From a virus, in IMG/VR virus record IMGVR_UViG_3300032235_000428, positions 1 through 64,000 of that record: 64,000 nt of DNA. One strand, given 5' to 3'. This document shows, in pieces, positions 1 to 51,168 of this stretch (the first letter of the stretch is position 1; each line of letters opens with the position of its first letter). The translations under genes and the position numbers were made by a program. Below the pieces are notes generated by a model. That model had not been told where the DNA came from. It was given only the letters and a program-made list of their open reading frames with translations, and did no database searches.

Positions 1-288
1 AAGTTCAGGAGTATTGTAAGCAACTTTACAATCAACCAATTCATTCTTCAGATCATTACCAAACATCTGGAGTTGTTGCCAGAAGTTTACAAGAGGTTCA
101 TAAAGGTCATTTACCCAAATATCTAGATTGGGATACTTCTTTGTGATGTAAATTGCAACACTCCCACCACCAATAAATGGTTCTCGATACTCATCATAGT
201 TGCGAAGATCGGGGAAATAAGGTCCCATCTTTTCACAAGCACGGGATTTACCACCAGGATAACGAAGAGGAGTTTTAAGAGATTTCAT
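1..288 (-). CDS. dam: DNA adenine methyltransferase (Dam/D12 family), N-terminal part; runs off the window
   Basis: Not in the ORF track. Manual translation from ATG at 288 gives MKSLKTPLRYPGGKSRACEKMGPYFPDLRNYDEYREPFIGGGSV...IWVNDLYEPLVNFW, with the RYPGGK and EPFxGGGSV (SAM-binding motif I) signatures of Dam-type methylases. The start overlaps the upstream stop (TGATG). Confidence 0.9.
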   Translation of the reverse strand, partial: MKSLKTPLRYPGGKSRACEKMGPYFPDLRNYDEYREPFIGGGSVAIYITKKYPNLDIWVNDLYEPLVNFWQQLQMFGNDLKNELVDCKVAYNTPEL

Positions 289-812
289 CAAAGGATCTCC
301 ATAAGGTTATCAAGAATTTCTGAAGAACTAATATTCTTTTTAGCGGGAGTTATATTTTGTGCAAGGATTGTGAAATCACCAGGAAGAAGTTTAATTTTTG
401 CTACTGGCGATTTAGGAGTAAAATAAATACGCTTCTCTACAGTTTTCCAATCAGTTAAACCAAGTGTCATACTAAAGGTATCGACAAGAAACATGTAGTC
501 AAATGTTTTATCTACGACCTTAGTTTCTCCACGGAAGTTTTTAAGATCAATTGCTCCAGTGGAACCATTTTTGTTAAACAATTTCAATTTACCTTTCATC
601 TCATAAAGTTCATTATTAGAGGAAACGAAATCTACACCATCTCGATGATCACCGACATATTCAAATTGACCATTACTCCACTTTGCAAAAGATTTCTCTT
701 GTAACCAAGTTCTAAGAGTTTTAAAGGCATTAGATTTCATTTGGGTTGTATTTGTTGCATTTACACAACCAAAGAATTCTTCAAGATTGATTTTAGAAAG
801 ATCAAATTTCAT
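288..812 (-). CDS. Hypothetical protein with a PD-(D/E)xK-like nuclease motif
   Basis: 174 aa; GVDFVSSNNELYEMKGK fits D-x9-E-x-K; coupled to gp44 (ATGA) and dam (TGATG). Confidence 0.5.
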   Translation of the reverse strand: MKFDLSKINLEEFFGCVNATNTTQMKSNAFKTLRTWLQEKSFAKWSNGQFEYVGDHRDGVDFVSSNNELYEMKGKLKLFNKNGSTGAIDLKNFRGETKVVDKTFDYMFLVDTFSMTLGLTDWKTVEKRIYFTPKSPVAKIKLLPGDFTILAQNITPAKKNISSSEILDNLMEIL

Positions 813-32639: not shown

Positions 32640-32906
32640 TCATTTATTTTTTATAGTTTCTGGAATATCTTCCGAACTTGGTTCCTTTCCTGGAGTTGCA
32701 AATGTGATTGATCCAATTTTTACTTTGTTTTCAACACCTTTTAACTGAGATTCTAGAATTTCATTAAAATAATTCTCATCAATCGATCCATCTTCATTTT
32801 TTGGGATATTAACTAATTTAGTAAAAATGTCACCTTTTTCATTTTTAAAAGTTATTGTAACATGATCTTTATTAGTTAAATCACTTGGGACTTCATAAGT
32901 AATCAT
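32640..32906 (-). CDS. Small acidic protein coupled to the giant fibre (possible assembly factor)
   Basis: 88 aa; ATGA overlap with the fibre stop. Confidence 0.65.
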   Translation of the reverse strand: MITYEVPSDLTNKDHVTITFKNEKGDIFTKLVNIPKNEDGSIDENYFNEILESQLKGVENKVKIGSITFATPGKEPSSEDIPETIKNK

Positions 32907-35900
32907 TTTTTCTTTAACTCCTCAATCTCTTCTTTCAGACTATTTATCATGGTCTGTTGTTCTTTAATTGCCTCAATTAAAACTGCAGTGATGTTACCAT
33001 AAGCAACCGCTTTAGTTCCAAAATTATCAGAAACAACTTCTGGGACAACCTGTTCAATCTCTTGAGCAATAACACCAATTTGATGTTCATTGTCTCTGTC
33101 AATACGATCAAATTCAACACCACGCATCTTAGTTACTTTTTCAAGAGCATTTTCAATTGGTTTAATATTGGTCTTGAGTTTGATATCTGAGTTTGCAGTA
33201 ACTGTACCTGATGCTGTGAAGTTTCCTGTAATTGTCCTGTTACCAAAATGAGAAACTCTGAATACTTTCCACCCAGAAATATAAGAAACTGCTGAAGTTC
33301 CAGGAACCTGAGTTGTAGTATAATTAAACAGTGCCATTGGTGTCCAATACTTGGTCCCTGCTTTAAATTGTCCAGTTGCAGCACCAAATCCAGTAATATA
33401 ACCACTTACTTTAGTCCATGCAGTTCCTGGATTAGTATTTACCATTACCCAATATCCAAAAGATCCTGGATTTCCACCTAATGATGTAAATGCCTCATTA
33501 TAATCAATTGATCCCATATAATGCGTATTAGTACCTGTTACATTTTTGATGTAACATTCCATGTAATAAACATCATTTGTATCTACTGGAATATATGGGA
33601 AACCAGCACCATATTCACCACCAACACTAGGTTGACCAGTAATAGAAACTGCATATCCACCTGGAGCAGTTGAATCGTTGACCCAAGATACTCCAGCAAA
33701 ATTAAAGTAGTTTTGTAATTCTGCATTTGTCCAAGTTGGATCCAATTCAAATACTGCTTCACCCTGACTGTAATGACCTATTGGATATCTTTCTGCAGTA
33801 TCAACTCTTGCATTAGTTCTTGTTACTTGAGTTGTATCAACTTTAGCAGCAGCAAATCCACCAGAAGCATCTCTGGAAACAATAGTTGAGTTTGTGTTAG
33901 TTGTAGCAGCATTTAGACCATCGAGTAAATCAGCATCAAGACCAGAACCAGAACCATCATTACCATCATTCCACATTCTTCTCCATGATGAAAATGTTCC
34001 AGCACCACTCCAAACACCTCTCATAAAGGTTAGTGATGGATTACCCTCACCAACTACCATCTGCCAACCATAACGAGCAGTATTATTTGTGTAGTGGATT
34101 GACTGCACACCGTTCCAATGTGAAGTACCAGATGGTTGATTACCTGGATTACCCCATGTGTCAAAGAAACCAGAACCCCAATCAAATACGGTGTTTAGAT
34201 CAGTTGTTCCCCATCCTCTGGTGCCTGTCCAATAATTAGTATCTGTTGTATCTGAACTTCTTGGTCTTGAATTTTTGTAGGTTAATCCAATCTGCTGTTG
34301 GAAGTCGGCAACTCCCTTATATCTAATATAATCATCATTTGAACAATAGATACGATCAATATTTGTTGTATCTGCAATATCACCTGATGGTGTATTAATC
34401 CAACCTGCCTGTATATAACCATTAACATCAGTCCTTACAACTTTATTTGCTTCATTATTTCTACCAGTGTGTAATTCTAAACCATCAAGTAAATCAGCAT
34501 CAAGAGTAGAACCAGCACCATCATTACCAGAGTGCCAAATTGTTTCGCCACCCCAAGTAAGAGCACCAGTTCCAATTCTACCTAATTGAGTATTAGAAGA
34601 ATTACCGAAGGTAATAAATCCTCTATCACTATTTTGAACCCCCTGAACTCTAAAGGTATTTGCCGTATTAATATCTCCAACCCATACATCATCACCAATT
34701 CTTAAATTTGTACCATTACCATTGTTACCTGAAATTAATTGATCAACTGTTACTACATTTGCACTAAAGTTACCAGAAGCATCTCTTCTTACGATTCGGT
34801 TTGCAGTATTAGCAGTATCTGTTGAATATCCCTCAAGTAAAGATGCATTTAGATTTGAAACTTGAGTTGTTGAAGTTACTGTAAGTGGTGCAGTTCCTGT
34901 TGCTATAGTTGAAATTAACCTTGTTCCACTGACTGTTCCAGTTACTGATAAATTACTGGTACTATCCAGTGTCATTGCAACAGTTCCACCAGTACCAGCA
35001 CTATTTTCTGTATCAGTGTGTGTACCACCACGATGCCAAGAAAATCTACTGTCTGATCTAAAATAAGATGTACTATTTTGAACACCTAATCCATATCCTG
35101 TTGACCATAGATTTATCATTTGACGAGTTTGATTTCCAAATGCCAAAATGGTTGATGGAGATACGTTTAACTGACCAGTAAATGTTCCTCCAGTAGCACT
35201 GAGAATACCAACACTAACTTCACCACCTGCACCACGCTGAACTACATAATTTGCAGTATTTGCACTTGAAGCATTGATACCTATAGTAACTGCAGCAGAG
35301 TTATTATAAGAGGTCCCTGTTAATGGTGATGAAATAGTTAATGTATTACCTAAAGAACCACTTATAGTTGTTGCACTAATTGTACCAGCATTTAATTGTC
35401 CAGTAAATGTGGAAATACCAGCAACTGTTAATCTATTCAGTGTTGCTGTACCTGCAGTTTGATTGATATTATTTCCAGAACCACTAAATGTGGAAACACC
35501 AGAAACAGTTTCATTTGTAAGTGCTGCAGTACCACTATTTGTTATAGTTGTTCCTGATATTGCACCATAATTTAATTGTCCAGTAAATGTGGAAACACCA
35601 GCGACTGTTAATCTATTAAGTGCTGCAGTACCAGTAGTTTGATTAATGTTGTTTCCTGCACCTGTAAATGTAGAAATTCCACTTACAACAATATTAGTAT
35701 TAATTAAGTTGGGTAAAGTTTGTTGTGTTGTTGCCGATGCCGAAATAGTACCAACATTAATCGTATCACTAAATGTAGTTACTCCAGATACAGTTAGTGT
35801 TGTTGCAATTAATGTATTAGATACTGATACTCTAGCTAATGTTGAAATACCAGAAACACTAAAGTTTGATGCTGTTAATGTTCCAGCAACGTTTGCTGTT

Positions 35901-38900
35901 TGATAGTTTGCAACACCTACATTAACATCACTTAAGAATGTTGTAATGCCAGAGAACACTGCTCTATTGAATACTTGAGTTCCTGCTGTACAGTTAATAT
36001 TATTTCCAGAACCACTGAATGTTGTAACTCCAGAAACTGTTTCGTTTGTTGCAACAATAGTTCCCGCGTTTGTTAGACGAGAATTAGTTGCATTGGACAT
36101 TGTGATATTGGTTACATTAACTGTATCACTAAATGTAGATACTCCAGTTACTGTTAATCTATTAAGTGCTGCTGTACCAGCAGTTTGATTAATATTGTTT
36201 CCAGAACCACTGAATGTTGAAATACCACTGATTGTAGCATTGACTGAACCCAAATTAGTAACAGTTCCAAATCCACTAATTGATCCATGCGTTACTGCTA
36301 AACCAACTGCTCTAAAATATCCCCCAACAGTTAAAGTGAGATTTCCAGAAAGTGTTGGTGAAGTTACAAGATCATATGTGGTGCCATTTCCTTGAAGAAT
36401 TGAACCTGCTGGGGGAATAGCAGCAAGACCAGTACCACCTTTAGAAATTGGAATTGATGCAGTGAAATTTACTGGGTTTAGATAATATGATCCAGACTGT
36501 CCACCTAAAGATGCAGCATCAATATCACCTGTCGATGAGTTTTTAATTGATACTTCACCGTCACTTCCGATACTAAATGTTGAATTTTTAAATCTAGATA
36601 CACCTAAAGAGGTATAATCTTGTCCTACTACAGTTTTAACTCTTTGGATAGAAAGATTTACTTTACCAATATAAGTATTAACTCCAACTCCACCAGGAGC
36701 ACTTTCTGTGAATGATGCAGTTGCACTTAATGGTTCTGTAGTTCCAATGCCAACTCTGGTTACAACTTTATCAAATGTGGAATCTCCTCTTAAGAAGGTG
36801 TCTGAGTTTGCACTTCCAGATCCAAGTCTTGATGGTGAAATTGTACCACTAGTTATGTTTGCTGCGTCTACAGAAGATGTGGCAAGAACGCTCCAGTTAT
36901 CTAAAATACTAGACGATGTATTTACAGTTGAATTATATTGAACATTTTGTCTAGTAAATGTAACAGTTCCTGTTGCGGTTGATCCTAATCCTACTGGACT
37001 AAATGTAGATCCATTTAAAGAGGTAGTTGCGTCTGCTCTTGTTGCATGTAAAGTAAATCCGTTAGTAATAACTGAACCAACGAAATAAAATGCTCCAGTT
37101 GTTACTCCTACTGGAGTTGCCCCAGTAACTTTTACAGCATCTCCAGTAGAAAATCCATGCTTTTCAAATACAATAAAATCATCTGAGGTATTTACACCAA
37201 CTCTTGTTAAACTATGGGTTCCAGTTCCACTACCAGTAAGAGAAATTAAAGATGATAATCCATATGTGGTATAAAGTTCAACTGAACTTAAACCAACTCT
37301 CTTAACATAATAAGTATCACCTTGAGTTAAACCATCAATAACATTCCCGCCCGCAGAAGAATAAATTACTGGATCACCGTTTGTAAATGTTGAAACACCA
37401 ACAACAATTCTATTGTTTGTAAAATCTACACCACCACCAATGGAAATATCTGTTGGTGTGAAAGTTTTTTGATATTGAAGTTGTAAACTAGTACCTACAC
37501 CGACAGCATCTCTGTCTGCAATATAATCAGGTAAAGTTGATGACGCAACAAATTTTTGATTATTTGTTAATTTTAAATATAATCTAGTTTCTATTATATT
37601 AACTGTAGCAGTAAAGTTTGCTCCACCACTTCTACCACCAAGTAATGTTACATTATTAATTGTTAAAACATCCCCAGAAGTGTAATACCTTCCACCAAAA
37701 TTAACACTGATTGCAGTTACAGTTCCAGAAGCACCAACTGTAATGGCAGCTCTTGCACTAGTACCGATACCAGTAGTTCTATCAAGTACACAAGTATAAA
37801 TTCCTGGATTTGTGTATCCAGAACCACCAGAAGTTATTGAAACTGATAGTAATACACCTTTCACTAGTCCTGTAGTTCCATATCCAACAGCATTTGTGGG
37901 GGGTGTTGTAACAACTCCAATTGATCCACCAGCACTGTTTGTACCTGTTACTTGATCACCATTTAAGAAATTGTAGTTTCTAGTGGTGCTACTTAATAAT
38001 AAATATTGCCCATATAAATCATTAGTTAAAACATATCCACTTGCTGGTTCTAGAACAGTGTCACCACTTTGTAAGTTAACAGCAGGTATTCTATTAACTA
38101 AATCAGTTCTTCCACCCGAAACATTTGTTGTATAATAATTAACAACCTTTGGTGGAATTAAATCTGGGTTAATTTGTCCATTTGAATTTAGTTGAACAAT
38201 AGCACTTGGAACAGCATTTGTGGAAATTGACTTATCAATAAAACTCCCCAATCTATTATTTAAAAATGATCTGACTGCAAGTTGAGTTGAAACTCTCTTG
38301 TTTTGAGGACCACCTATTTCATTATCACCAAGTCCAATATCAGTTGAGAATTCTTCAACTGCAACACCACCAGAAAGACTTAATCTTAAAGAATCTAATT
38401 GACCAATTGTAACCTTATTGTTGAAAACAATGTTACCAGTTCTGTTGTATGCAGTAATAAAATTACCAATCTTAAAGTCACCCAATTCATTAGTTCCAGA
38501 ACAATAAACTCGTCCACCAAGCTCCGAAAGTTGTTCGGTAGATGTAATAGTTTTTCCTCCGTTTTCTGGTAACGCATTATAATCTATACCAGATCCAGAA
38601 AACTCCCATGTATGTGATGATGAGTTGATAATAGAAGGTCTGTGGAAGTGTAAATTATATGCTTCTGGTAAACCACCGACACCATTAATAACTGTATCTG
38701 GTATAGTTGCACCAACTTTACATTCAACTGTATAATAAGTATTAATACCAGCAACTCCAGTAACGGCAATAGATACTGGACTTCCGCTATGATCATTAAT
38801 TTTTAATGTAGATACATTATCTGTTACTCCAAATAATCTGGTAATACCACTAGATGATTCTACGGAAACAACTAATTCTCTCTTGGTAGAATTGTAAGTA

Positions 38901-41900
38901 TATGCATATCCAACTGCAGTTCCACCAGGAACTAATTGTGTAATTTGTCTACCAGAAACAAAGTTTAATGTTGATGATGTACTTGCAAGAGAAACAACTT
39001 GATAATTATCGTGAGAATCTAAAATTTCTGAAGCAAAAAACTCTACGTTACCTTTTTGGAATGTGTTAATTCCTGTAGGTGTTGATCTAGTATCAACAAC
39101 TCTTGTTAAAGCTTCGTCTTCGTATAATTGGAATGTATTTGAATCAATATATCCTAAGTAATATTGGTTTCCACTAACCATACCCTCAATAACTCTTTGA
39201 GGAGCAGAATTTTCATCTCCAATGTAAAGTACGGTATCTGCGTTTAAAAATGGGTGTGCAGTTACCGTAAATCTATCAGTAGCAGTATTGAGACCTACTG
39301 TAGGTAAGAATGTTGCCTGCGTTACAACTGGTTTAAAATCTGCAGTATCATCATTTCCAGCATTATCAAAAAATCTTAAAACATATAGATCTTGATCAGT
39401 TCTACCGAGACCAATCGTTCTTAATGTTTGAGAACCACTTGAAGTTCCTGTAGCAGCAACTCTACCTCTATCAAATACGTAAGATCTTTGATTGAACCCA
39501 GATGATCTTAATGCATATAAACCAAAGTTAGTTGCTGAGTTTGTAATGGATAAGTATCCACCAGACTGTGTTAAAGATCCATATTTGCAGAAAATTTGGA
39601 AGCACGAAACTACCTGTGCATATCCATCATTTATAGTTCTCCATCCAATACCACCAAAAGAAACCATGGTAAATGCTGCAGCAACCATGGACTTACCAAA
39701 TTGTGGTTGAGGTCCTGATACAGGATTTTCTGCTTCTTCTGGTATAATTGTAGTATTTGGTGTTTGTATTTTAGAACCATCAACTAAAATACCATTTCCT
39801 GCTAAGAATGAAAGAATAGAGCAGTTTTGAATATACGGTGATCTACTAATTAAAGGCTTATCTGTTTTAACAGCATATCCAATTCTACTTGTAAATGTAT
39901 CTGCTGGATCGTCGAATGCAATTGCATAATCAAAAGTATATTGGGGAACACCTGCAAGATCGACATAATCTTTCATTGCAAATCCAGTTACATAGCATCC
40001 ATTTCTAACTCTGAAAAGATCTTTGCCAGCATTCTGTGGTCTAATAATGGTATTTCTTAAATTATCACCAACAACAGCAACATCTTCGTATAACAGAATT
40101 GGATTGTCTTCTACATAATTTCCAGCTTCAACAAATATACAAATTGGTTTTGATTGTGTAGTTGGTAAGGATAGTGCTGGTGCTGCAGTAGTACCTATAC
40201 CAATGATTGTTGTTACAATACCTACAGAGTTTACAATTGCAGATCTAACATTAGCACAATCTGTTGTTGCTCCTATTCCAGTTGCTGGGACTGCAGAAAG
40301 ATTACCGTTTGTAATTGCTGCTGTTAAAATTCCAACCAAACTATCAATATTTGATCTGATATTTGCACAAGAAGATGGACTAGTGTTGAATCCAGTAACA
40401 GGATCAGCAATTATGGTCCTATCTTGATAATTTAAATTGTTGGTGATTGCTAGTTTTGCATAATCTCTCGCTGCCTGGAATGCTGTTACTGATTGGGATT
40501 GTTCACCCAATAAACCATTTGATATTGGGGCACCACCTCCATTAAAATATGCTTTTGTTGCATATACTATATGTTGATTAGAACCGTAAGAAACATCCTG
40601 AGCTATAGCATCAACAATATATCCAAGATCTCTAGCACATTTTCTGCCACCTATAATATTTGTTGATCCAATACCAATACTTCCACAAATAACATTACAT
40701 GATGTTGTAATTCCAGCAAAATAACCACCATTATATGATGGTAAACCTGTTGTACTTCCAGCACCTATAACAGAGGTAACAATTCCTACAAGAGAAACAA
40801 TATTAGTTTGTACATCAAAACATGAGTTGGCACTAGTATTTGGTGGTGATGTACCTATTCCACCATATATTGTTGCTCCTACAGAAACCGTTAAATCTTT
40901 AATTGGTAGACGATTTGTTATCGCCTCCCTCATTAAATCTCCAGCGTATCTAAATGCATAAATGGTTTGCTGTTCTTCTCCAGCAAGACTACCAATACCA
41001 ACCCCAGTAAAATATTTTAATACAAATTCTCTTGCATAATTATTACCACCAGTAAATACGTCTGTGGAAACAGCATCAATAAAATATCCTAAATCTCTTT
41101 TGCATTTATTAGGATTTGGATTTACAAATGCTGGGTATGCTGTTGAAATTCCTGCATACGAATAATCAATGATTGTTTGTCTATTTTGTTGGATTAATCT
41201 ATAAGAATCATAGTATCTAGATCTTGCGTTTGTGGAACTTTCATTAGGAAAATAAAAATCTGAATGTGCAATTGCCACAGCAGCAAGAGACTTGTCAATA
41301 ATTTCTTGTCTATTATTAATAATTAAGTTTCTGGCATCCTTTGCTCTATGGAAACTATTTGCATTTACATTATTTGGATCTTGAGTTATAGTAAAGTCAA
41401 AAGTTTGAGTAATTACATTTTGATATAATGTTGGTGGAGTTTGATTATTAATTACATATTGGGCTAAGAATTTTATGTAATTATATGCAAACAGTGCTTC
41501 ACTTTCTTCACCTTGAACATAAGATACTCCACCACTCCAATAGGCAAAACCCGCCTCTAAAGATTTACTGTTACCACCATAAGAAAGATCGTAAGTGATA
41601 GCATCTACAATATATCCAACATCCCTAATACAAATTGCCCTATCATAATCTGGTTTATCTGTATAGATGTTTGGGTAATTAAATTCTAAATATGAAACAA
41701 CTTCTTCTTGAATAAATTGTCTATTGGCAGTTAATAAGTTTCCAGCATCTATGTATCTACCACCTGGTAAAGAAAATGATCTAAATGATGCTGCTTGTGC
41801 TGCCTTTTTAAGAGTTTTAAATGGTTTTGATCTACCATCATTACTATCATCTCCATTTGCAGAAGATACATAATATCTATTTTCATACAGTCCATTAGTA

Positions 41901-42244
41901 TTAAATCCTAAAACACCATCAGCACCATAAGTCAAAACCTGACCATCAGTTCCAGCTTTTGCAGGTAGAGTTAAAGTGTATGATGATACAAATCCTGATG
42001 TCTGACTTGGTGGTGTAATTGTTATTCTCTGTCCACCACTTTCGATGGCAATTTGAGATTGGAAAGTGACTATTCCCATACCACCAGCACCGTTGGTGGC
42101 GGAAATAATTCCTACTGTTGTAACTCCAGTTACTTTTGTATGTGTAAAAGTAGTAACACCAGCTACTATGTTCCTATTAACATCGACAAGTCTTTCGGTA
42201 TCAATGTTAATACCGTGCTTTACCCTAAAATTTTTGTCAGCCAA
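32903..42244 (-). CDS. 3113 aa tail fibre: beta-helix domain with phycobiliprotein-like insertions, fibre repeats, carbohydrate-binding-like domain, C-terminal S74 intramolecular chaperone
   Basis: TTG start after GGGGA; YYVSSANGDDSNDG..KPFKTLKKA beta-helix cap; LDADLLDG twice; SDIKLKTNI...IGVIAQEIEQVVPEVV...AVLIEAIKE (peptidase S74). Confidence 0.85.
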   Translation of the reverse strand: MADKNFRVKHGINIDTERLVDVNRNIVAGVTTFTHTKVTGVTTVGIISATNGAGGMGIVTFQSQIAIESGGQRITITPPSQTSGFVSSYTLTLPAKAGTDGQVLTYGADGVLGFNTNGLYENRYYVSSANGDDSNDGRSKPFKTLKKAAQAASFRSFSLPGGRYIDAGNLLTANRQFIQEEVVSYLEFNYPNIYTDKPDYDRAICIRDVGYIVDAITYDLSYGGNSKSLEAGFAYWSGGVSYVQGEESEALFAYNYIKFLAQYVINNQTPPTLYQNVITQTFDFTITQDPNNVNANSFHRAKDARNLIINNRQEIIDKSLAAVAIAHSDFYFPNESSTNARSRYYDSYRLIQQNRQTIIDYSYAGISTAYPAFVNPNPNKCKRDLGYFIDAVSTDVFTGGNNYAREFVLKYFTGVGIGSLAGEEQQTIYAFRYAGDLMREAITNRLPIKDLTVSVGATIYGGIGTSPPNTSANSCFDVQTNIVSLVGIVTSVIGAGSTTGLPSYNGGYFAGITTSCNVICGSIGIGSTNIIGGRKCARDLGYIVDAIAQDVSYGSNQHIVYATKAYFNGGGAPISNGLLGEQSQSVTAFQAARDYAKLAITNNLNYQDRTIIADPVTGFNTSPSSCANIRSNIDSLVGILTAAITNGNLSAVPATGIGATTDCANVRSAIVNSVGIVTTIIGIGTTAAPALSLPTTQSKPICIFVEAGNYVEDNPILLYEDVAVVGDNLRNTIIRPQNAGKDLFRVRNGCYVTGFAMKDYVDLAGVPQYTFDYAIAFDDPADTFTSRIGYAVKTDKPLISRSPYIQNCSILSFLAGNGILVDGSKIQTPNTTIIPEEAENPVSGPQPQFGKSMVAAAFTMVSFGGIGWRTINDGYAQVVSCFQIFCKYGSLTQSGGYLSITNSATNFGLYALRSSGFNQRSYVFDRGRVAATGTSSGSQTLRTIGLGRTDQDLYVLRFFDNAGNDDTADFKPVVTQATFLPTVGLNTATDRFTVTAHPFLNADTVLYIGDENSAPQRVIEGMVSGNQYYLGYIDSNTFQLYEDEALTRVVDTRSTPTGINTFQKGNVEFFASEILDSHDNYQVVSLASTSSTLNFVSGRQITQLVPGGTAVGYAYTYNSTKRELVVSVESSSGITRLFGVTDNVSTLKINDHSGSPVSIAVTGVAGINTYYTVECKVGATIPDTVINGVGGLPEAYNLHFHRPSIINSSSHTWEFSGSGIDYNALPENGGKTITSTEQLSELGGRVYCSGTNELGDFKIGNFITAYNRTGNIVFNNKVTIGQLDSLRLSLSGGVAVEEFSTDIGLGDNEIGGPQNKRVSTQLAVRSFLNNRLGSFIDKSISTNAVPSAIVQLNSNGQINPDLIPPKVVNYYTTNVSGGRTDLVNRIPAVNLQSGDTVLEPASGYVLTNDLYGQYLLLSSTTRNYNFLNGDQVTGTNSAGGSIGVVTTPPTNAVGYGTTGLVKGVLLSVSITSGGSGYTNPGIYTCVLDRTTGIGTSARAAITVGASGTVTAISVNFGGRYYTSGDVLTINNVTLLGGRSGGANFTATVNIIETRLYLKLTNNQKFVASSTLPDYIADRDAVGVGTSLQLQYQKTFTPTDISIGGGVDFTNNRIVVGVSTFTNGDPVIYSSAGGNVIDGLTQGDTYYVKRVGLSSVELYTTYGLSSLISLTGSGTGTHSLTRVGVNTSDDFIVFEKHGFSTGDAVKVTGATPVGVTTGAFYFVGSVITNGFTLHATRADATTSLNGSTFSPVGLGSTATGTVTFTRQNVQYNSTVNTSSSILDNWSVLATSSVDAANITSGTISPSRLGSGSANSDTFLRGDSTFDKVVTRVGIGTTEPLSATASFTESAPGGVGVNTYIGKVNLSIQRVKTVVGQDYTSLGVSRFKNSTFSIGSDGEVSIKNSSTGDIDAASLGGQSGSYYLNPVNFTASIPISKGGTGLAAIPPAGSILQGNGTTYDLVTSPTLSGNLTLTVGGYFRAVGLAVTHGSISGFGTVTNLGSVNATISGISTFSGSGNNINQTAGTAALNRLTVTGVSTFSDTVNVTNITMSNATNSRLTNAGTIVATNETVSGVTTFSGSGNNINCTAGTQVFNRAVFSGITTFLSDVNVGVANYQTANVAGTLTASNFSVSGISTLARVSVSNTLIATTLTVSGVTTFSDTINVGTISASATTQQTLPNLINTNIVVSGISTFTGAGNNINQTTGTAALNRLTVAGVSTFTGQLNYGAISGTTITNSGTAALTNETVSGVSTFSGSGNNINQTAGTATLNRLTVAGISTFTGQLNAGTISATTISGSLGNTLTISSPLTGTSYNNSAAVTIGINASSANTANYVVQRGAGGEVSVGILSATGGTFTGQLNVSPSTILAFGNQTRQMINLWSTGYGLGVQNSTSYFRSDSRFSWHRGGTHTDTENSAGTGGTVAMTLDSTSNLSVTGTVSGTRLISTIATGTAPLTVTSTTQVSNLNASLLEGYSTDTANTANRIVRRDASGNFSANVVTVDQLISGNNGNGTNLRIGDDVWVGDINTANTFRVQGVQNSDRGFITFGNSSNTQLGRIGTGALTWGGETIWHSGNDGAGSTLDADLLDGLELHTGRNNEANKVVRTDVNGYIQAGWINTPSGDIADTTNIDRIYCSNDDYIRYKGVADFQQQIGLTYKNSRPRSSDTTDTNYWTGTRGWGTTDLNTVFDWGSGFFDTWGNPGNQPSGTSHWNGVQSIHYTNNTARYGWQMVVGEGNPSLTFMRGVWSGAGTFSSWRRMWNDGNDGSGSGLDADLLDGLNAATTNTNSTIVSRDASGGFAAAKVDTTQVTRTNARVDTAERYPIGHYSQGEAVFELDPTWTNAELQNYFNFAGVSWVNDSTAPGGYAVSITGQPSVGGEYGAGFPYIPVDTNDVYYMECYIKNVTGTNTHYMGSIDYNEAFTSLGGNPGSFGYWVMVNTNPGTAWTKVSGYITGFGAATGQFKAGTKYWTPMALFNYTTTQVPGTSAVSYISGWKVFRVSHFGNRTITGNFTASGTVTANSDIKLKTNIKPIENALEKVTKMRGVEFDRIDRDNEHQIGVIAQEIEQVVPEVVSDNFGTKAVAYGNITAVLIEAIKEQQTMINSLKEEIEELKKK
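40196..41758 (-). repeat. Three nested phycobiliprotein-like (C-x-R-D-x-G-Y) helical units within the 3113 aa fibre
   Basis: CIRDVGY (Cys205, codon 41630-41632), CKRDLGY (Cys381, 41102-41104), CARDLGY (Cys536, 40637-40639); three R..DA..L...NRQ helices and three [SD]C...V...I..LV helices. Confidence 0.7.
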
Positions 42245-42282: not shown

Positions 42283-42290
42283 TATTTATA
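42283..42290 (-). promoter_or_regulatory. Late promoter TATAAATA
   Basis: Overlaps the stop of the 2960 aa gene, upstream of the TTG start. Confidence 0.75.
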
Positions 42291-45200
42291 TTCTATTAGC
42301 TATGAAGTTCACAACAACTGTAGTCACACCAACATTAGATACTGGAGTTACTCTTAGTGCAATATATCCAGGTGGTAATGAGTTATCTATCACTACATCA
42401 TAAGATGCAACATCAACACCAGTAGAAATATTTGAATATTCTGAGTTATAGCATGTTACTCCATCATGAATGGACAATATTTTAGTTATTTGGTGAGTAT
42501 TTCCAATAGAAGTTTGAACTGTATATTCAACGGATCTAAAATCAGATCTTGCCAAAGCAGTATGAACTTGTGCTGTTGCATTTGATGTTAAAGTTGTTGA
42601 AATAGTTCCAACTAATGTATTTCCTCTTATCTGAATGTCGCCATACACATGAAGTGCTGAATTTGGTGAAGCGGTATTAATACCAACCGATCCAATTCCA
42701 GATGTTGCGTCTGCAAGTAATATTGTTCCACCAACGCCAACACGTAGACGGCCAGTTGTTGTTACTCCAGTATTATGAATGTCTTGAGATCTAATGATTG
42801 GGAACGTACCTACACCAGTTATGTTGATATTAGTGGCATTAAAGAAGTTGAAGTTAGAAACATTTGGTGAATCTAATCTTTGTGTAAATGTTGCAATACC
42901 AGCATATAATAAGTTAGAACCGAAAATATCAAGATCATTAATTTCTAAACTAGTTCCCTTAATTGCATTAAATGTTGAAATTCCTGTAAATACACAATCA
43001 GAACCAATAATATCATTAACTGTAGCAATACCAGTGCTAACTAAATTAACATTTCTGAGTGTGTTAATAGTAGATACACCAGAATAATTTAAATTAGTAC
43101 CGCTTACAAAAGTAATAATACCAACGTTTGCTCTTAATGTTGTTATTGACGCTATTCCAGAAGCATAAATGTCAGTATTTGTTATGCTTGTTAATGTTAT
43201 ATCAGTTGCTAATATCTTACCTAATGTACTTATACCAAGATAAGATAAGTTAGTTCCTACTAAGTTTGGAATAGTTCCTAAACCAGAATAATTTAAATTA
43301 GTACCTGTAATAAAGGTTACAATACCAACATTAGTTCTGAAGTTATTAAAACTTCCTATACCAGTACTATAAATGTTTACATTATCTATATCTTGATAAG
43401 TTGCTCTTGTACCAGAAATAGTAGTAACTACACCTGTTACTGCAAATAATGAATTAAGTTGTCCAATAGTATATGATACATTAGTTCCAGAAAGAGTAGT
43501 TACAAATCCAGAATTGGTGTATAAAGTATTAATAGTACCAATTCCACTGTATGCTACATTAGTACCAGTTAAATTAGTTACAACACCAACATTAGTGTAT
43601 AAAGTTATAATTGTACCAATTCCACTATATGCTACATTAGTACCAGAAAGATAAGTTACAAATCCAACATTAGTGTATAATGTATTATTATTAGTAATGT
43701 TATCTAAAAATAATGTAGATGCATTTACTGTTACTAATGTAGTAACTCCAGATACTGATAGATTTTGATTGGATAGATATGTTACGAAACCAACGTTAGC
43801 ATATAAAGTATTTACAGTACCAATTCCACTATATGATACATTAGTACCAGAAAGATAAGTTACAAGTCCAACATTAGATTTTAATGTAGAAATACTTGCA
43901 ATACCTGCAAGATTGTCTCTTGAGAAGAATGCAGTTTCCGTTACAAACCCAACATTATTGGATGGTTGTGAAATTGTAATAGTATTTGTTCCTAAACCTA
44001 CAATTCTTGTTCCAGAAGATATTCCACTTGGGGAATAAACAAAATCATTAATTTGTAGTGATAATATAAAGGATGTGGGAAGACCAACTACGGTAGTATT
44101 AATTCCAATAGATGCTTCAGTACTTCCAGTACCAATGATATAATTTGTAGAAAGAATATAATCTGATGTTAAAGTTGTTACTAATCCAACATTACTCTTC
44201 AATTGAGTAATGGTTCCAAGACCAGTTGTATAAATGTTGGTATTGTCTACTAATGGAATAGTTCCTATTCCAGCAAAGAAATTTGTAACATTTAGTGCAG
44301 TGACAAATCCAACGTTAGCAAAGAAATCTGATACACTAGTAATACCACTAGAATAAATCCTATCAGATTCTAAGTTTTCTGCTCCAATAGTGGTAGTTTG
44401 GAAGTTATCACCAACTGCGGATGTAATAGCAACATTTTGAACATTAAGATTTGCAATTGTTGAAGTTCCAACAATGTTCAAATCTACCGAATTTAGAGCG
44501 ATAGTTCCTATTCTATTAGCAATAATTTCAAGAACATTTAAAACATTTGTTATTTCAGCATCGGTTGCTGATAAAACACCAACAGTTGCAATCCCAACAT
44601 TTATTAAATTAGATCTTATATCATTAATAGTTCCAATTCCACTATAAGATAAATTGGTTCCTGTTAAGAAAGTTACAATACCAACATTAGTCCTTAAATT
44701 AGTAAAACTTGCAATTCCAGTATTATAGAGATTTGTATTATCAATGTCTGGATATGTTGCTCTTGTACCAGAAATAGTAGTTACAAATCCAGTATTAACT
44801 CTTATTGCTGGTGTGGTTGTTACCCCAGTAACTTCTATATCTCTACCATAAAATGTAGTAACATATCCAACATTGGTTCTTAAAACATCAATAGTACCAA
44901 TACCACTATATACAATATTAGTACCAGTTAAATATGTAACTATACCAACGTTGGTATTTAAAATTGGTAATGTTGAGATTCCAGAATACCAAAGGTTTGT
45001 ACCTATTAAATTAGTGACAAATCCAATATTAGTTCTTAAAGTATTGATAGTACCAACACCAGTATATTGAATATTAGTTCCACTTAAGAATGTAACAAGA
45101 CCAACGCGAGCTGTTACTGTCTCAGCAGAAGAAATACCTGGAGTGTAGATATCGGTATTTACGTATAAACGTTGTGCTGTGGTTATTCCTGTTATATTTG

Positions 45201-48200: not shown

Positions 48201-51168
48201 CACCAAAAGCATTAACGGTGGTTGTTCCTGTATTATATAAATTTTGTGTTGAATTTCCTCCAACAATAGTTGTTGGTCTGAGAGTTAAAGTTGCATTAGT
48301 TGAACCAATACCAATAGTGGTTGCGTCACCGAATGCAGTAACTGTTGTTGTAGTAGTATCAATAAATCTATATGTAGATTGATCGGTAATGAATAATGAA
48401 GATCTATGACTAATTGTATTTTGGAATGTGGAAACACCAGCAACTCTTAGATTATTTTCTAGTTCTACATCACCACTAAGAGTTGAAATTCCAGTAACTC
48501 TAAATGTTGCTGTAGTGGTAACTCCAGTTATTTGAAGATTTCCAGTAACTTTTGTCCCACTAGAATCAACTTTAACTCTTTCAGTGTTATCATAATTAGT
48601 AATTCTAACATCTCTTCCAGAAAGACTTAGATATCCAGAAGTATTAAGATGTTGTAAAATACCATTACTTGTATTATCTGCAAATCCTATTCTAAGACCA
48701 GTTCCTGAACTATTACCAAGATTTATATATTGGTCGCTTGTTCCAGAAAGTGCTGGTAAATTAATATTTGATACGCTTAAAGAAGGAACGTAACCATTGT
48801 TAGGTCCTGTTATAATACCAACAAATGTTGATACTCCAGCAACATTTAAATTATTATCAAGACGAACATCTCCACTCAGTGTTGAGATTCCAGTAACTCT
48901 AAATGTTGATGTTGTGGTAATTCCAGTAACATTTAAGTTACTGTTTATCATGAATGAATTACTAAATGTGGTGACACCAGCAACTCTTAGATTATTTCCT
49001 AGCTCTACATCACCACTAAGAGTTGAAATTCCTGTAACTTTTAATGTAGTTAGTGTTGTAATTCCAGATACAAAGACATCTTTTCCAAATTGAGCACTAT
49101 CAGTTAAGGTTGAAAACCCAGTAACTCTTAGATTTCCAATTGTACCAATTCCAGATACGCGAATATTATTGGTAAACTCAGTGTCTCCAGTTAATGTTGA
49201 AATACCAGTAACTCTAAATGTTGATGTTGTGGTAATTCCACCAACATTTAAGTTGTTAGTTAAATTAGTATCTCCAGTTAAAGTCGATACACCAGTAACT
49301 CTAAAGTTACCTACAGTCGCTATTCCAGATGCTAACAAGTTAGCATTGAACATTGAATCTGAAACAAATGTAGATACTCCAGCAACTCTAATTGAAGAAT
49401 CTAATCTAACTGGTGATACAAATGTAGAAACACCAGAGACTTTAAAATCTTTCCCTACATTTAAATTGCTACTAATTCCAACTCCACCTTGAACGACTAG
49501 GGTTCCATTTGAGGATGTGAATGAATCTTGACCACCAGTTAAGTTGAATCTATAATTTCTTACCGTGGTTACCCCACTAGTAGAACCAATGACTATATTT
49601 GTTGCATCTCCAGCAAAATTTACTCTATTTGCTACAGTATTAATTAAATTATAATCTGTTTGATCTGTTATAAAATCAGAATTATAATGTCTTATTGGAT
49701 CATAAAATGTAGATACACCAATAACTTCAAGATGACTTGCCGTTAGGGTTCCAGTTAGTGTAATGTCACTTGTACTTGCAATAGAAACTAGTCCAGTTTC
49801 TTGATCAATTCTAAAAATTGATCCAATTCTAAAATTGCCAGCTTGGTCTACAGATTGAAAATATACCCTACCACCATTCAATTGAATTGCTTCATTTTCA
49901 GGTAAAGATAGAGTTGGATCTTGTGTAAATGTTTTCCCAGATCCAACGCAACCAAAATTAAATCCAAAAAGTCTTAATTGTACACCTTTACCATCACCAC
50001 GTACACCTACTGTACCAAAGTTTGTTGCAGATCCAATGGATCTCATATCGGCACCAAACTTTTGGTAATCTGCCCAAAGAATAGTGCTTGCAGTACCTAC
50101 TTGAGTAGTTCCATTAGACTGGAAAATTCTAACATCTTGAGTTGAACCAATTCCAACAGAATTGAAGATGCCAGAACCTTTACCTAGGATAGTTATATAA
50201 TCACCTTCAACAGATACTACAGTTCCGATAGCAACTGGAGTTCCACTTTGATAATACTTTACAACATAATTAGATGTAATTGATGTTGTAATTCCAGAAA
50301 GCTTTAATTGAGCATTTGCAGTACTTGCTATACCAACACTTCCAGAAATACCTTCAATACCAACACTGGAGAAATAAGTAAAACAGTTTACCCATTCAGT
50401 TCTTGCCCCGTTGGTCATCTTCAGGGCAGTTTGATTTGGTGTAATAAAAGTACACTCATTAAAGAGCATTGCAGGCTCTAGTGTTGTTGATTGAACGACA
50501 CTAGCATCTATTAAAACACCTCTACCAGCAACTTTTGCCGTTGGATAATTATCTACAGTATCAAATCCATAGGGATCAGTTGGAGTTTGTGTTGACCCCC
50601 TATTAAGTACGGTAATTCTCTGAACATAAGGGCTCCTAGTGGTTGTAACCATATTAGGAGCAAATTTAAATCCATATCCAGTATCAGTTGAAGAATTATA
50701 ATAAAAATTTCCTAATGCCAAATCTTCAATTGTGCTTTCTCCGTTTAAGAGAAATGCGTCATTTCTTTCTGTACCAGAAGTTGGTTGAATAAATGTGGAT
50801 CTTAAACCATTTCCGCGTACAGTAACCCCTTGTGGTATAGTTAACGGGAAAATTTCAGTAAAAGTTCCAGAAGAAATTAGAATAGTATCCCCAGAAACTG
50901 CTACAGTTAATGCTTTTTTTAACGTAGCAAATGCTGCAGATATATTTTGACCATCATTAGTGTCAAGACCAGTTTTGGTAACGTAGTATGTTTGACCTGG
51001 GTATCCTCCACCTAGATTTACAACAGTTTCTACACCACCTACATCTTTTTTTAGGTACGCCTTACCATCATGTGTATTTACAGCTAATTCTCCCAACTGT
51101 AGGTCTGAAGTGAGAGGAATTTTGCCTGGTGTTGAAGACCTTTTTAGTCTAATGATTGGATCTGCCAT
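42286..51168 (-). CDS. 2960 aa tail fibre: Mtd-N-like N-terminus, beta-helix domain, extensive Gly/Thr/Asn repeats
   Basis: IRLKRSSTPGKIP...GELAVNTHDGKAY; YYVTKTGLDTNDG..AFATLKKAL; many VxG[IV]ST[FL] and TVNAFGxAT repeats. Confidence 0.85.
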   Translation of the reverse strand: MADPIIRLKRSSTPGKIPLTSDLQLGELAVNTHDGKAYLKKDVGGVETVVNLGGGYPGQTYYVTKTGLDTNDGQNISAAFATLKKALTVAVSGDTILISSGTFTEIFPLTIPQGVTVRGNGLRSTFIQPTSGTERNDAFLLNGESTIEDLALGNFYYNSSTDTGYGFKFAPNMVTTTRSPYVQRITVLNRGSTQTPTDPYGFDTVDNYPTAKVAGRGVLIDASVVQSTTLEPAMLFNECTFITPNQTALKMTNGARTEWVNCFTYFSSVGIEGISGSVGIASTANAQLKLSGITTSITSNYVVKYYQSGTPVAIGTVVSVEGDYITILGKGSGIFNSVGIGSTQDVRIFQSNGTTQVGTASTILWADYQKFGADMRSIGSATNFGTVGVRGDGKGVQLRLFGFNFGCVGSGKTFTQDPTLSLPENEAIQLNGGRVYFQSVDQAGNFRIGSIFRIDQETGLVSIASTSDITLTGTLTASHLEVIGVSTFYDPIRHYNSDFITDQTDYNLINTVANRVNFAGDATNIVIGSTSGVTTVRNYRFNLTGGQDSFTSSNGTLVVQGGVGISSNLNVGKDFKVSGVSTFVSPVRLDSSIRVAGVSTFVSDSMFNANLLASGIATVGNFRVTGVSTLTGDTNLTNNLNVGGITTTSTFRVTGISTLTGDTEFTNNIRVSGIGTIGNLRVTGFSTLTDSAQFGKDVFVSGITTLTTLKVTGISTLSGDVELGNNLRVAGVTTFSNSFMINSNLNVTGITTTSTFRVTGISTLSGDVRLDNNLNVAGVSTFVGIITGPNNGYVPSLSVSNINLPALSGTSDQYINLGNSSGTGLRIGFADNTSNGILQHLNTSGYLSLSGRDVRITNYDNTERVKVDSSGTKVTGNLQITGVTTTATFRVTGISTLSGDVELENNLRVAGVSTFQNTISHRSSLFITDQSTYRFIDTTTTTVTAFGDATTIGIGSTNATLTLRPTTIVGGNSTQNLYNTGTTTVNAFGAASTLNIGANSGTLTIGNPTVVGTQATQNLYNIVTTTVNAFGQATSIGIGSTNATLTARPSTIVGTNATQNVYNTVATTVNAFGAATTLNIGANSGTLTVGNPTVVGTQVTQNLYDTVATTVTAFGQATSIGIGSTNATLTARPSTIVGTNATQNVYNTIATSVNAFGAANNLLLGAISGFATVRNTVFSLPNASTVDINGNNPTISGSSTGTLTLFNTNLTTVNAFGEATTIGIGSTNATLTLRPITIVGGNTTQNLYNTGTTTVNAFGQATAIGIGSTNATLTLRPSTLIGQSATQNVYNTIANTVNAFGQASSINIGANSGTLTIGNPTVVGTQVTQDVFNSVATRVNAFGAAADLLIGANTGVTTIRNASVNLSNATSISATQSSFTVFNTNTTINAFGAASTFNIGANSGTLTIGNPTVVGTQVSQNLYNTVATRINVFGVATDLLIGATTGIATVRNLTFSLPNATSFAINGANPTISGTSTGTLTLFNTALTSINAFGAATAIVWGATTGIATVRNTTFSLPNATSFAINGANPTISGTSTGTLTLFNTALTSVNAFGDATNIVIGNSVGVTTIRHNLVVPAIDVDNVQVLGISTFFTDIIQPFGTTNLNELVVAGVSTLNGITNFSNDINSVNIYNSGTVNTPSLNVTGVSTIRGDLNVGGNLTVDGTVTSFNSSVLQVDDVNIELGVVSVITGLQGAIVSGANAVTLDPNIYTTTGLIPGQTITQTGGTGSIAAGTVRILSIVSSSVFTVDAVHLTTGDITFDVGGATDYTADQGGIILRGTTDKRIFYDRQQNTWSSTEDFNLVPSKSYKIGGQELLSSAQLSISNINITGVATLPILNVNNSSTFIATVGNLLGSNIYYTGISSFNQSYIAVGIVTNLKADYFTLTNNETLIATQNNSIIGPSTNKIAISTAGLNPEMTVYSTGTELLPNTTILSIDAPGIITITPSSINAAQTTTSTITVVDDPRAGVASISKLKAHIGILTNFDTVNANITGITTAQRLYVNTDIYTPGISSAETVTARVGLVTFLSGTNIQYTGVGTINTLRTNIGFVTNLIGTNLWYSGISTLPILNTNVGIVTYLTGTNIVYSGIGTIDVLRTNVGYVTTFYGRDIEVTGVTTTPAIRVNTGFVTTISGTRATYPDIDNTNLYNTGIASFTNLRTNVGIVTFLTGTNLSYSGIGTINDIRSNLINVGIATVGVLSATDAEITNVLNVLEIIANRIGTIALNSVDLNIVGTSTIANLNVQNVAITSAVGDNFQTTTIGAENLESDRIYSSGITSVSDFFANVGFVTALNVTNFFAGIGTIPLVDNTNIYTTGLGTITQLKSNVGLVTTLTSDYILSTNYIIGTGSTEASIGINTTVVGLPTSFILSLQINDFVYSPSGISSGTRIVGLGTNTITISQPSNNVGFVTETAFFSRDNLAGIASISTLKSNVGLVTYLSGTNVSYSGIGTVNTLYANVGFVTYLSNQNLSVSGVTTLVTVNASTLFLDNITNNNTLYTNVGFVTYLSGTNVAYSGIGTIITLYTNVGVVTNLTGTNVAYSGIGTINTLYTNSGFVTTLSGTNVSYTIGQLNSLFAVTGVVTTISGTRATYQDIDNVNIYSTGIGSFNNFRTNVGIVTFITGTNLNYSGLGTIPNLVGTNLSYLGISTLGKILATDITLTSITNTDIYASGIASITTLRANVGIITFVSGTNLNYSGVSTINTLRNVNLVSTGIATVNDIIGSDCVFTGISTFNAIKGTSLEINDLDIFGSNLLYAGIATFTQRLDSPNVSNFNFFNATNINITGVGTFPIIRSQDIHNTGVTTTGRLRVGVGGTILLADATSGIGSVGINTASPNSALHVYGDIQIRGNTLVGTISTTLTSNATAQVHTALARSDFRSVEYTVQTSIGNTHQITKILSIHDGVTCYNSEYSNISTGVDVASYDVVIDNSLPPGYIALRVTPVSNVGVTTVVVNFIANRI
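47741..48075. repeat. 83 bp exact direct repeat, 252 bp period, in the fibre gene
   Basis: 47741-47823 is identical to 47993-48075. Confidence 0.9.
49199..49312. repeat. 114 bp direct repeat, copy 1 (2 mismatches to 52554-52667 in the adjacent gene)
   Basis: Manual alignment. Confidence 0.9.

Follow-up and report, generated by a model that had tools for sequence, protein, structure and literature searches.

Phycobiliprotein-like units predicted to be nested within the beta-helix of a cyanophage fibre

Residues 153–702 of a 3113-residue cyanophage fibre protein (P0001) are best explained, with high confidence, as a four-level nested domain architecture in which phycobiliprotein-like units are inserted one within another and into a right-handed beta-helix, although the split of one of the three units (unit 3) is inferred and was not read directly from a three-dimensional model. 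The gene was analysed in a window of 64,000 nucleotides (the whole stretch examined; positions 1–64,000 of IMG/VR record IMGVR_UViG_3300032235_000428). The block contains exactly three A/B hairpins (A), three E-F-G blocks (EG) and three H helices in the order A1-EG1, A3, A2-EG2-H2, EG3-H3, H1. The host beta-helix is cut between its cap helix (aa ~145–155) and its first strand (aa 701–705), and unit 1 (A1–G1 plus H1, aa ~660–685) is inserted there. Unit 3 sits just before H1, and the contiguous unit 2 sits in the B/E loop of unit 3. Coordinates of the features are given in Table 1.

Table 1. Features of the fibre gene and of the neighbouring paralogue (window positions; residues of the respective protein).
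Positions	Strand	Feature	Residues	Supporting data
32903..42244	-	Whole fibre gene (P0001), TTG start	3113 aa	PHROG tail-fibre families; C-terminal Peptidase_S74 intramolecular chaperone (PF13884, aa 3019-3071, E 1.2e-15)
41780..41884	-	N-terminal piece of the beta-helix domain: first strand plus cap helix	121-155	pLDDT 87-94 in the larger model; beta-helix chains align from model residue 1
41354..41767	-	Unit 1, N-part: helices A1, B1, E1 (Cys205-x-R-D), F1, G1 and the G/H loop	160-297	65% identical to the contiguous single unit of P0120
41222..41353	-	Unit 3, N-part: helices A3 and B3	298-341	A HMM, E 6e-5; two helices at pLDDT 81-87
40745..41221	-	Unit 2, the only contiguous unit: helices A, B, E (Cys381), F, G, H (Cys475)	342-500	PF00502 hit on aa 344-413
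40655..40744	-	Flexible linker with Cys516 and Cys520; degenerate H-like sequence	501-530	pLDDT < 50 in both models; weak BLAST to H helices
40295..40654	-	Unit 3, C-part: E3 (Cys536-x-R-D), F3, G3, H3 (Cys626)	531-650	HMMs; helices in the insert model
40175..40294	-	Unit 1, C-part: helix H1 (Cys663)	651-690	73% identical to the H element of the contiguous P0120 unit
39500..40147	-	Body of the right-handed beta-helix	700-915	Strands at residues 581-794 of the larger model
50779..51018	-	Uninterrupted cap and first rungs of the 2960-aa paralogue (P0002)	51-130	PF07602 DUF1565, E 2e-6; weak Pel9A-like beta-helix hit

The order of elements given in the first-pass annotation, which marked a region covering aa 122–712, was confirmed, and all of its landmarks are where it placed them. 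Cys205, Cys381 and Cys536 each sit in a C-x-R-D motif at the start of a long helix, and Cys475, Cys626 and Cys663 each sit just before an H-type helix. The flanks are KPFKTLKKAAQAA (aa 140–152) and PICIFVEAGNYVEDNPI (aa 700–716). Internal BLASTP matched residues 163–297 with 343–474 (E = 2e-19), 300–345 with 343–388 (2e-7), 380–497 with 535–648 (3.5e-24), and 659–686 with both 471–498 (2e-7) and 613–647 (1e-6). Element HMMs found three A, three EG and three H elements in this gene and none elsewhere in the window. A degenerate, Cys-containing H-like stretch at aa 509–530 is modelled as a disordered linker and was rejected as a fourth H helix.

The units are remote homologues of phycobiliproteins, and the description of them as globin domains in the first-pass annotation is right in the sense of the phycobiliprotein, globin-like fold. 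The whole protein scores 26.7 bits against PF00502 (cut-off 22.2), although unit 2 alone scores 20.7 bits, and four of 11 diverse units match at E <= 0.01. PDB sequence searches returned only phycobiliproteins, with the motif aligned exactly on the Cys84-x-Arg86-Asp87 chromophore site. In Foldseek the probability was 1.0 with TMt 0.60–0.76, and fold comparison with VIA gave Z scores of 15–16.7 and r.m.s.d. values of 1.7–2.5 Å over about 130 residues to phycobiliprotein beta chains (best Z 16.7, 2.5 Å for 135 aligned residues). Across 1486 EG elements, the Cys is kept in 96%, the Arg in 94% and the Asp in 97%. The units start at helix A and have no N-terminal X-Y hairpin of their own; alignments to unit 2 alone begin at chain residue about 32, and longer alignments borrow helix B3 of the enclosing unit. 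The domain occurs only in cyanophage records (158 of 50,697 phage records).

The insertion site is contiguous in the neighbouring paralogue and in many homologues. P0001 residues 115–152 match P0002 residues 51–90 (E = 1e-3) and P0001 residues 703–957 match P0002 residues 96–350 (E = 3e-8), so that about 550 residues lie where P0002 has five. Among the other relatives, L022 has an empty site with 65% identity in the cap flank (67% in the best segment), and L020, L015 and L029-62 have contiguous caps. A PDB sequence search and Pfam on aa 700–1060 found nothing, and the beta-helix was recognized only by fold and by homology to contiguous relatives. About 40 beta-helix chains align over residues 1..805/840 of the larger AlphaFold model with only about 210 aligned residues, and the first 30 residues of this model, with the cap helix at model residues 25–35, have pLDDT of about 90. 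VIA Z scores were 18.6 (213 aligned residues) to the cyanophage Pam1 tailspike (7eea) and 13–17 to pectate-lyase-fold chains, which include alginate lyases and pectin methylesterases. The host domain has the cap motif Y-V-x-x-x-G-x-D-x-N-x-G ... G-N-Y-V-E.

Relatives hold 0, 1, 2, 3, 4 or 6 units at this site. P0120 and P0128 have one contiguous unit, and P0001 residues 111–289 match P0120 residues 111–291 at 65% identity. The H element of P0120 resembles H1 of P0001 more closely than the other two H helices (58% and 50% identity). The haemoglobin chain 1ith_B aligns 119 of 141 residues over residues 11..533 of the insert model (aa 160–682), ending in H1, which is consistent with a split unit 1; however, only two rows span this unit (model residues 9/11..530/533), and their Z scores of 6.2–6.4 are within the range that is common for helical proteins. 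All 50 top VIA rows fell on unit 2 and no row spans unit 3, the split of which is supported only by homology of its pieces to unit 2 and by counts, co-phylogeny and coupling scores in relatives.

The pairing of pieces was analysed across 152 family members. The number of orphan A elements equals that of orphan EG elements in 27 of 49 proteins and differs by one in 14, and 19 proteins give a perfect stack parse at depth >= 2. In the four-unit orthologue P0008, the first orphan A and the last EG both match unit 3, and the middle A and EG both match unit 2. An mfDCA model trained on 1013 contiguous A-EG pairs ranked true partners above non-partners in 107 of 113 proteins, and last-in-first-out pairing was the best permutation in 14 of 14 balanced blocks. 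These blocks are not fully independent, and part of the signal may be shared ancestry rather than contact. The unbalanced or near-identical arrays of P0003, P0004, P0006 and P0011 gave no preference, the likely causes being missed A elements or recent repeats. For P0001 itself, the coupling matrices identify the contiguous partners but assign A3 to EG3 and EG1 to H1 only by elimination. A comparison of outer pairs with cross-pairs involving the innermost elements was discarded because it is biased by training on contiguous units, and the H-helix Cys was of no use for covariation because it is specific to a subfamily.

AlphaFold gave a pTM of 0.79 for the insert alone, and an independent BFVD model from S-CAM1 superposes on the whole insert with TMq 0.58 over 534 columns. 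The alignments behind the two AlphaFold models are shallow (25 and 33 rows), and the pTM of the larger model is only 0.52, so that the orientation of the insert relative to the beta-helix is unknown; the proposal in the first-pass annotation of a stalk projecting sideways from the fibre remains an inference. Its nesting order (unit 2 inside unit 3 inside unit 1 inside the cap) is supported, but the two internal insertion points differ (the G/H site of unit 1 and the B/E loop of unit 3), and this is not one site used repeatedly. From this topology we infer that the chain runs out through the N-terminal pieces, turns in unit 2 and returns through the C-terminal pieces, so that both ends of the insert meet at the cap and whole units can be added or lost without disturbing the host. 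We also infer that A3-B3 packs onto E3-H3, that the three units form a fairly rigid arm on each protomer of a trimeric fibre, and that this arm serves adsorption, as a spacer or contact with the cell surface. It may carry a bilin, because the Cys-x-Arg-Asp site is kept.

Serial insertion is only one possible origin of the array. Possibly, though less probably than not, the runs of N-pieces and of C-pieces instead expand and contract by unequal recombination within each run, with selection keeping only balanced products. Runs of near-identical units occur in P0003 and P0004, copy number differs by whole units among close relatives, and the extra unit of P0008 resembles unit 2 in both halves, which either route could produce. 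On the other hand, each step would need two coordinated events or an unbalanced intermediate, and the outermost step (one contiguous unit in P0120 against a split unit in P0001) looks like a plain insertion at the G/H site. It is unlikely that the units are a convergent six-helix, globin-like bundle with a coincidental C-x-R-D motif. Sequence E-values to phycobiliproteins in the PDB are weak (0.02–0.1), a single unit falls below the Pfam cut-off, the Foldseek E-value is only 0.02 and other globin-fold sensors match at Z 8–11, but every sequence hit is a phycobiliprotein, phycobiliproteins stand above other globin folds (Z 14–17 against <= 11) and the domain is confined to cyanophage records. 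Three colinear partial domains, in which unit 1 uses A3 or B3 as a surrogate H and E3-H3 uses the last helix (aa 664–683) as a surrogate for A/B, are very unlikely despite the lack of a structural read-out for unit 3 and the ambiguous coupling of A3 in P0001 (EG2 126 against EG3 117), given the 73% identity of the last helix to the H of P0120, with colinear flanks, the globin alignment spanning unit 1, the last-in-first-out preference, and the matching counts in a family whose members such as A4(EH)4 or A9(EH)7 would otherwise leave many unpaired pieces.

A more speculative and improbable possibility is that the nested units are functional bilin-binding domains, chromophorylated during infection at the near-invariant Cys-x-Arg-Asp site by host or phage lyases using phage-made bilins. 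The virion would then carry pigmented, length-tunable arms that could make adsorption light-dependent, and the long-puzzling cyanophage bilin-synthesis and cpeT genes would have a phage substrate. No cpeT, bilin reductase or haem oxygenase gene was found in the 102-kb record, but as the record is only about 52% complete this says nothing.

Literature searches for phycobiliprotein-like or globin-like domains in cyanophage virions returned nothing relevant. A host light-harvesting fold has been taken into cyanophage virion proteins, among phages only there, and has been multiplied by self-nesting at two permissive loops, giving what is inferred to be a there-and-back chain whose length changes by whole units and marking a variable module on adsorption proteins. 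As a deep example of recursive domain insertion it is useful for domain-parsing and homology-search methods, because split units escape linear profile searches. In contrast to phycobiliprotein subunits (CpcA/B, CpeA/B, ApcA/B), the units are built into a virion fibre rather than a phycobilisome and are self-nested rather than free, and there is no evidence that a bilin is bound. The bilin-binding domain of the core-membrane linker ApcE (Z 12–14) appears to tolerate a large insertion, its PB-loop, between helices B and E, the site where unit 2 sits inside unit 3, but the ApcE insert is a loop rather than another copy of the same domain and there is only one level. In the Pam1 tailspike comparison, the fibre differs in that its cap-to-first-strand junction carries the 550-residue nested insert. 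Recursive A1-B1-C-B2-A2 nesting of copies of one small domain is known from the Si3 insertion of cyanobacterial RNA polymerase beta' (RpoC2), reported as a six-level architecture and the deepest case highlighted in a survey of 48,551 insertion events (PMC13114784). Si3 is a sandwich-barrel hybrid motif in a cellular enzyme, whereas the fibre units have an all-helical globin-like fold and two different insertion sites, and relatives of the fibre have runs of up to nine consecutive N-pieces.

The nested block lies in the 5' part of a 3113-codon gene on the minus strand (encoding protein P0001), directly downstream of a 2960-codon gene on the same strand (encoding P0002, the neighbouring fibre paralogue). 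The DNA is that of a T4-like cyanophage and belongs to a 102-kb viral fragment that is about half complete; the only similar phage record found by megablast was that of Synechococcus phage DSL-LC03 (Kyanoviridae), at 73.7% identity. By ORF listing, both the P0001 gene and its DSL-LC03 counterpart (locus L001) start at a TTG codon. P0001 ends in a Peptidase_S74 intramolecular chaperone and matches PHROG tail-fibre families, whereas P0002 matches 'baseplate wedge' families. The coordinates of the features are collected in the table.

Features of the fibre gene, its neighbour and related loci. Residue numbers refer to P0001.
Feature	Assigned unit	Position	Residues	Strand
P0001 gene		window 32903-42244		minus
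P0002 gene		window 42286-51168		minus
A piece (two-helix hairpin)	1		163-192	
A piece (two-helix hairpin)	3		300-334	
A piece (two-helix hairpin)	2		341-376	
E-F-G piece	1		202-290	
E-F-G piece	2		377-465	
E-F-G piece	3		534-612	
H piece	2		469-499	
H piece	3		620-648	
H piece	1		660-686	
PF00502 match			344-413	
Linker between H2 and E3		window 40655-40744	501-530	
DSL-LC03 counterpart of the P0001 gene		L001:6736-16221		
Relative with contiguous cap and interruption at a second beta-helix site (example)		L021:2001-5546		
Relative with extra residues near the second site		L022:2115-3407		

The first-pass annotation had described three nested globin units inserted into a beta-helix cap, and all six cysteines on which it relied (Cys205, Cys381, Cys475, Cys536, Cys626 and Cys663) as well as both flanking peptides were confirmed in P0001. 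Internal BLASTP comparison identified three kinds of piece, namely the A hairpin, an E-F-G piece that starts with C-x-R-D and an H piece, with E-values between copies running from 2e-7 to 3.5e-24. Unit 1 aligns with unit 2 from A to the residue just before the H-helix cysteine, and at that exact point the A piece of unit 3 begins; this A piece in turn stops where the E helix should start, and there unit 2 begins. HMMs built for the three pieces found exactly three of each in this gene and none elsewhere in the window. The linker between H2 and E3 looks like a decayed H helix with two cysteines (Cys516 and Cys520) and is modelled as disordered; it may be a remnant of a lost unit.

The units are phycobiliprotein-like. 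Pfam PF00502 was matched at 26.7 bits, above its cut-off, and phycobiliproteins and proteins engineered from them (smURFP) were the only PDB sequences found, by single sequence or by profile. In these alignments the motif K-C-x-R-D-x-G-Y falls on the Cys84-x-Arg86-Asp87 chromophore site of phycocyanin. The AlphaFold model of residues 150-705 has a mean pLDDT of 76.3 and a pTM of 0.79, and contains 20 helices that read, with segments separated by semicolons, as A,B,E,F,G; A,B; A,B,E,F,G,H; E,F,G,H; H. The top Foldseek hits were phycoerythrin and phycocyanin beta chains (prob 1.0, TMt 0.60-0.76), and VIA-align gave Z 15-16.7 with an r.m.s.d. of 1.7-2.5 Å over about 130 residues, whereas other globin-fold proteins reached only Z 8-11. 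The sequence evidence alone is borderline, and membership in PF00502 is best described as remote homology, with the X-Y hairpin missing.

The block is an insertion in a beta-helix cap. Residues 115-152 and 703-957 of P0001 align to residues 51-90 and 96-350 of P0002, which itself hits DUF1565 and, weakly, a Pel9A-like beta-helix family. Many related loci (L020, L015 and L029-62) have the same cap motif running straight into the first strand, and locus L022 is 65% identical in the cap flank and empty at this site. A second model (residues 121-960; pLDDT 73, pTM 0.52) places the first 30 residues at a pLDDT of about 90 and builds strands at residues 701-914. About 40 beta-helix chains, led by the cyanophage Pam1 tailspike (Z 18.6), align about 210 residues over model range 1..805/840, and in the model the host domain is therefore itself discontinuous. 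In a further set of relatives (L021, L023-L028 and L033) the cap is contiguous but the same beta-helix is interrupted at a second site, between the equivalents of P0001 residues ~780 and ~793, by about 940 residues that contain phycobiliprotein-like units; L022 has about 170 extra residues near the same place. The host thus has at least two permissive sites.

Relatives hold different numbers of units at the cap site: none in L020 and L022, one in proteins P0120 and P0128, two in P0081, three in P0001, P0009, P0020, P0036 and many loci, four in P0008, P0018, L005, L072 and L074, and six in P0006 and L073. The single unit of P0120 is contiguous. Its A-to-G part is 65% identical to P0001 111-289, and its H element, which runs straight into the first beta-strand, is 73% identical to the last H of P0001, compared with 58% and 50% for the other two. 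Units 3+2 are thus an insertion a few residues before helix H of unit 1. One phage contig carries two different genes, each with a three-unit nested insert, the second of which has different flanks (L082/L083 versus L076/L077, on the same contigs FUIF01012218.1 and Ga0208162_1000038).

A search of 1.84 billion representatives found 988 proteins, mostly 1-8 kaa, with up to 36 matched stretches. Annotation of the best 150 with the three HMMs gave three patterns: plain tandem AEH arrays, A^n(EH)^n arrays nested at the B/E loop (e.g. AAAA-EHEHEHEH), and (AE)^n H^n arrays nested at the G/H junction. P0001 combines the two nested kinds, as AE[A[AEH]EH]H. A stack parser accepted 22 proteins without error, 19 of them at depth >= 2. 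Among 49 proteins with a run of A pieces, orphan A equals orphan EG in 27 and differs by one in 14; A is the weakest HMM, so single misses are expected. In P0026, P0048, P0053, P0058, P0072, P0095 and L020, (AE)^n is followed, and sometimes preceded, by runs of H-like helices with imperfectly matched counts, which could reflect G/H-site nesting, a permuted arrangement or cross-detection by the short H model. Some units of the L021-L033 proteins (A784 ... EG920; EG1085 ... H1289) carry inserts of about 100-120 residues that match none of the three element models and sit at the same two loops (B/E and G/H) that host nested units elsewhere, and a four-unit orthologue (L078/L084; EG956 ... H1178) has about 130 extra residues between G and H of one inner unit.

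To determine which N-piece goes with which C-piece, we first measured the separation of the innermost A and EG, which has a median of 2 residues, so that they belong together; a first-in-first-out pairing would then be inferred to need this 2-residue link to span the whole array. A mean-field DCA model was trained on 1013 contiguous A-EG pairs, and in cross-validation the true partner outscored non-partners in 107 of 113 proteins. When the model was applied to nested blocks with junction-near columns removed, last-in-first-out was the single best permutation in all 14 balanced blocks (10 with 2 permutations and 4 with 6). The chance of this would be about 7.5e-7 if the blocks were independent; they are not fully independent, however, and part of the signal may be shared ancestry, which also favours this pairing. 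In the 4-unit orthologue P0008, the first orphan A and the last EG both best match unit 3 of P0001, and the middle A and EG both best match unit 2.

In the structural comparisons every phycobiliprotein alignment fell on the contiguous unit 2. Two alignments span the split unit 1, with modest scores: haemoglobin 1ith_B, with 119 of 141 residues aligned over model 11..533 (Z 6.4), and colicin A, over model 9..530 (Z 6.2). No alignment spans unit 3, and its split is therefore inferred from sequence homology, the confident A3-B3 helices (pLDDT 81-87), the high pTM of the insert, the family counts and the pairing tests in orthologues. An independent BFVD model of an S-CAM1 tail protein superposes on the whole insert with a TMq of 0.58 over 534 columns.

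Because the chain is inferred to go out and come back, both ends of the insert would meet at the cap and the host beta-helix would be undisturbed whatever the number of units, which fits the 0-6 units seen at one site. The C-terminal S74 chaperone suggests a trimeric fibre, in which case each protomer would carry one arm that cannot lie on the trimer axis; the sideways projection proposed in the first-pass annotation is thus plausible, but remains an inference. Likewise, a function as an adjustable arm on an adsorption protein is only inferred. Nested insertion as such is known, and a 2026 survey reports six-level nesting in the Si3 region of cyanobacterial RpoC2 as its most complex case (PMC13114784), but we found no paper on phycobiliprotein-like domains in phage virions.

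The domain is restricted to cyanophages in the phage collection searched. By tblastn the unit was found in 158 of 50,697 phage records, all Synechococcus or Prochlorococcus phages or 'Cyanophage', plus one 'Marine' record; they include S-RSM4, Syn9, Syn1, P-HM1/2 and S-RIM8, and the proteins are annotated as short tail fibre, gp7 baseplate wedge or virion structural protein. The bilin-site residues are very well kept across the 1486 EG elements of the 150 best family members, with Cys in 96%, Arg in 94% and Asp in 97%. Both observations keep open that a bilin is bound, although we consider this unlikely. In the same elements an Asp 11 positions later (97%) and a Tyr 27 positions later (98%) are also nearly invariant, whereas the cysteine before helix H is specific to a subfamily, Thr being the commonest residue family-wide.
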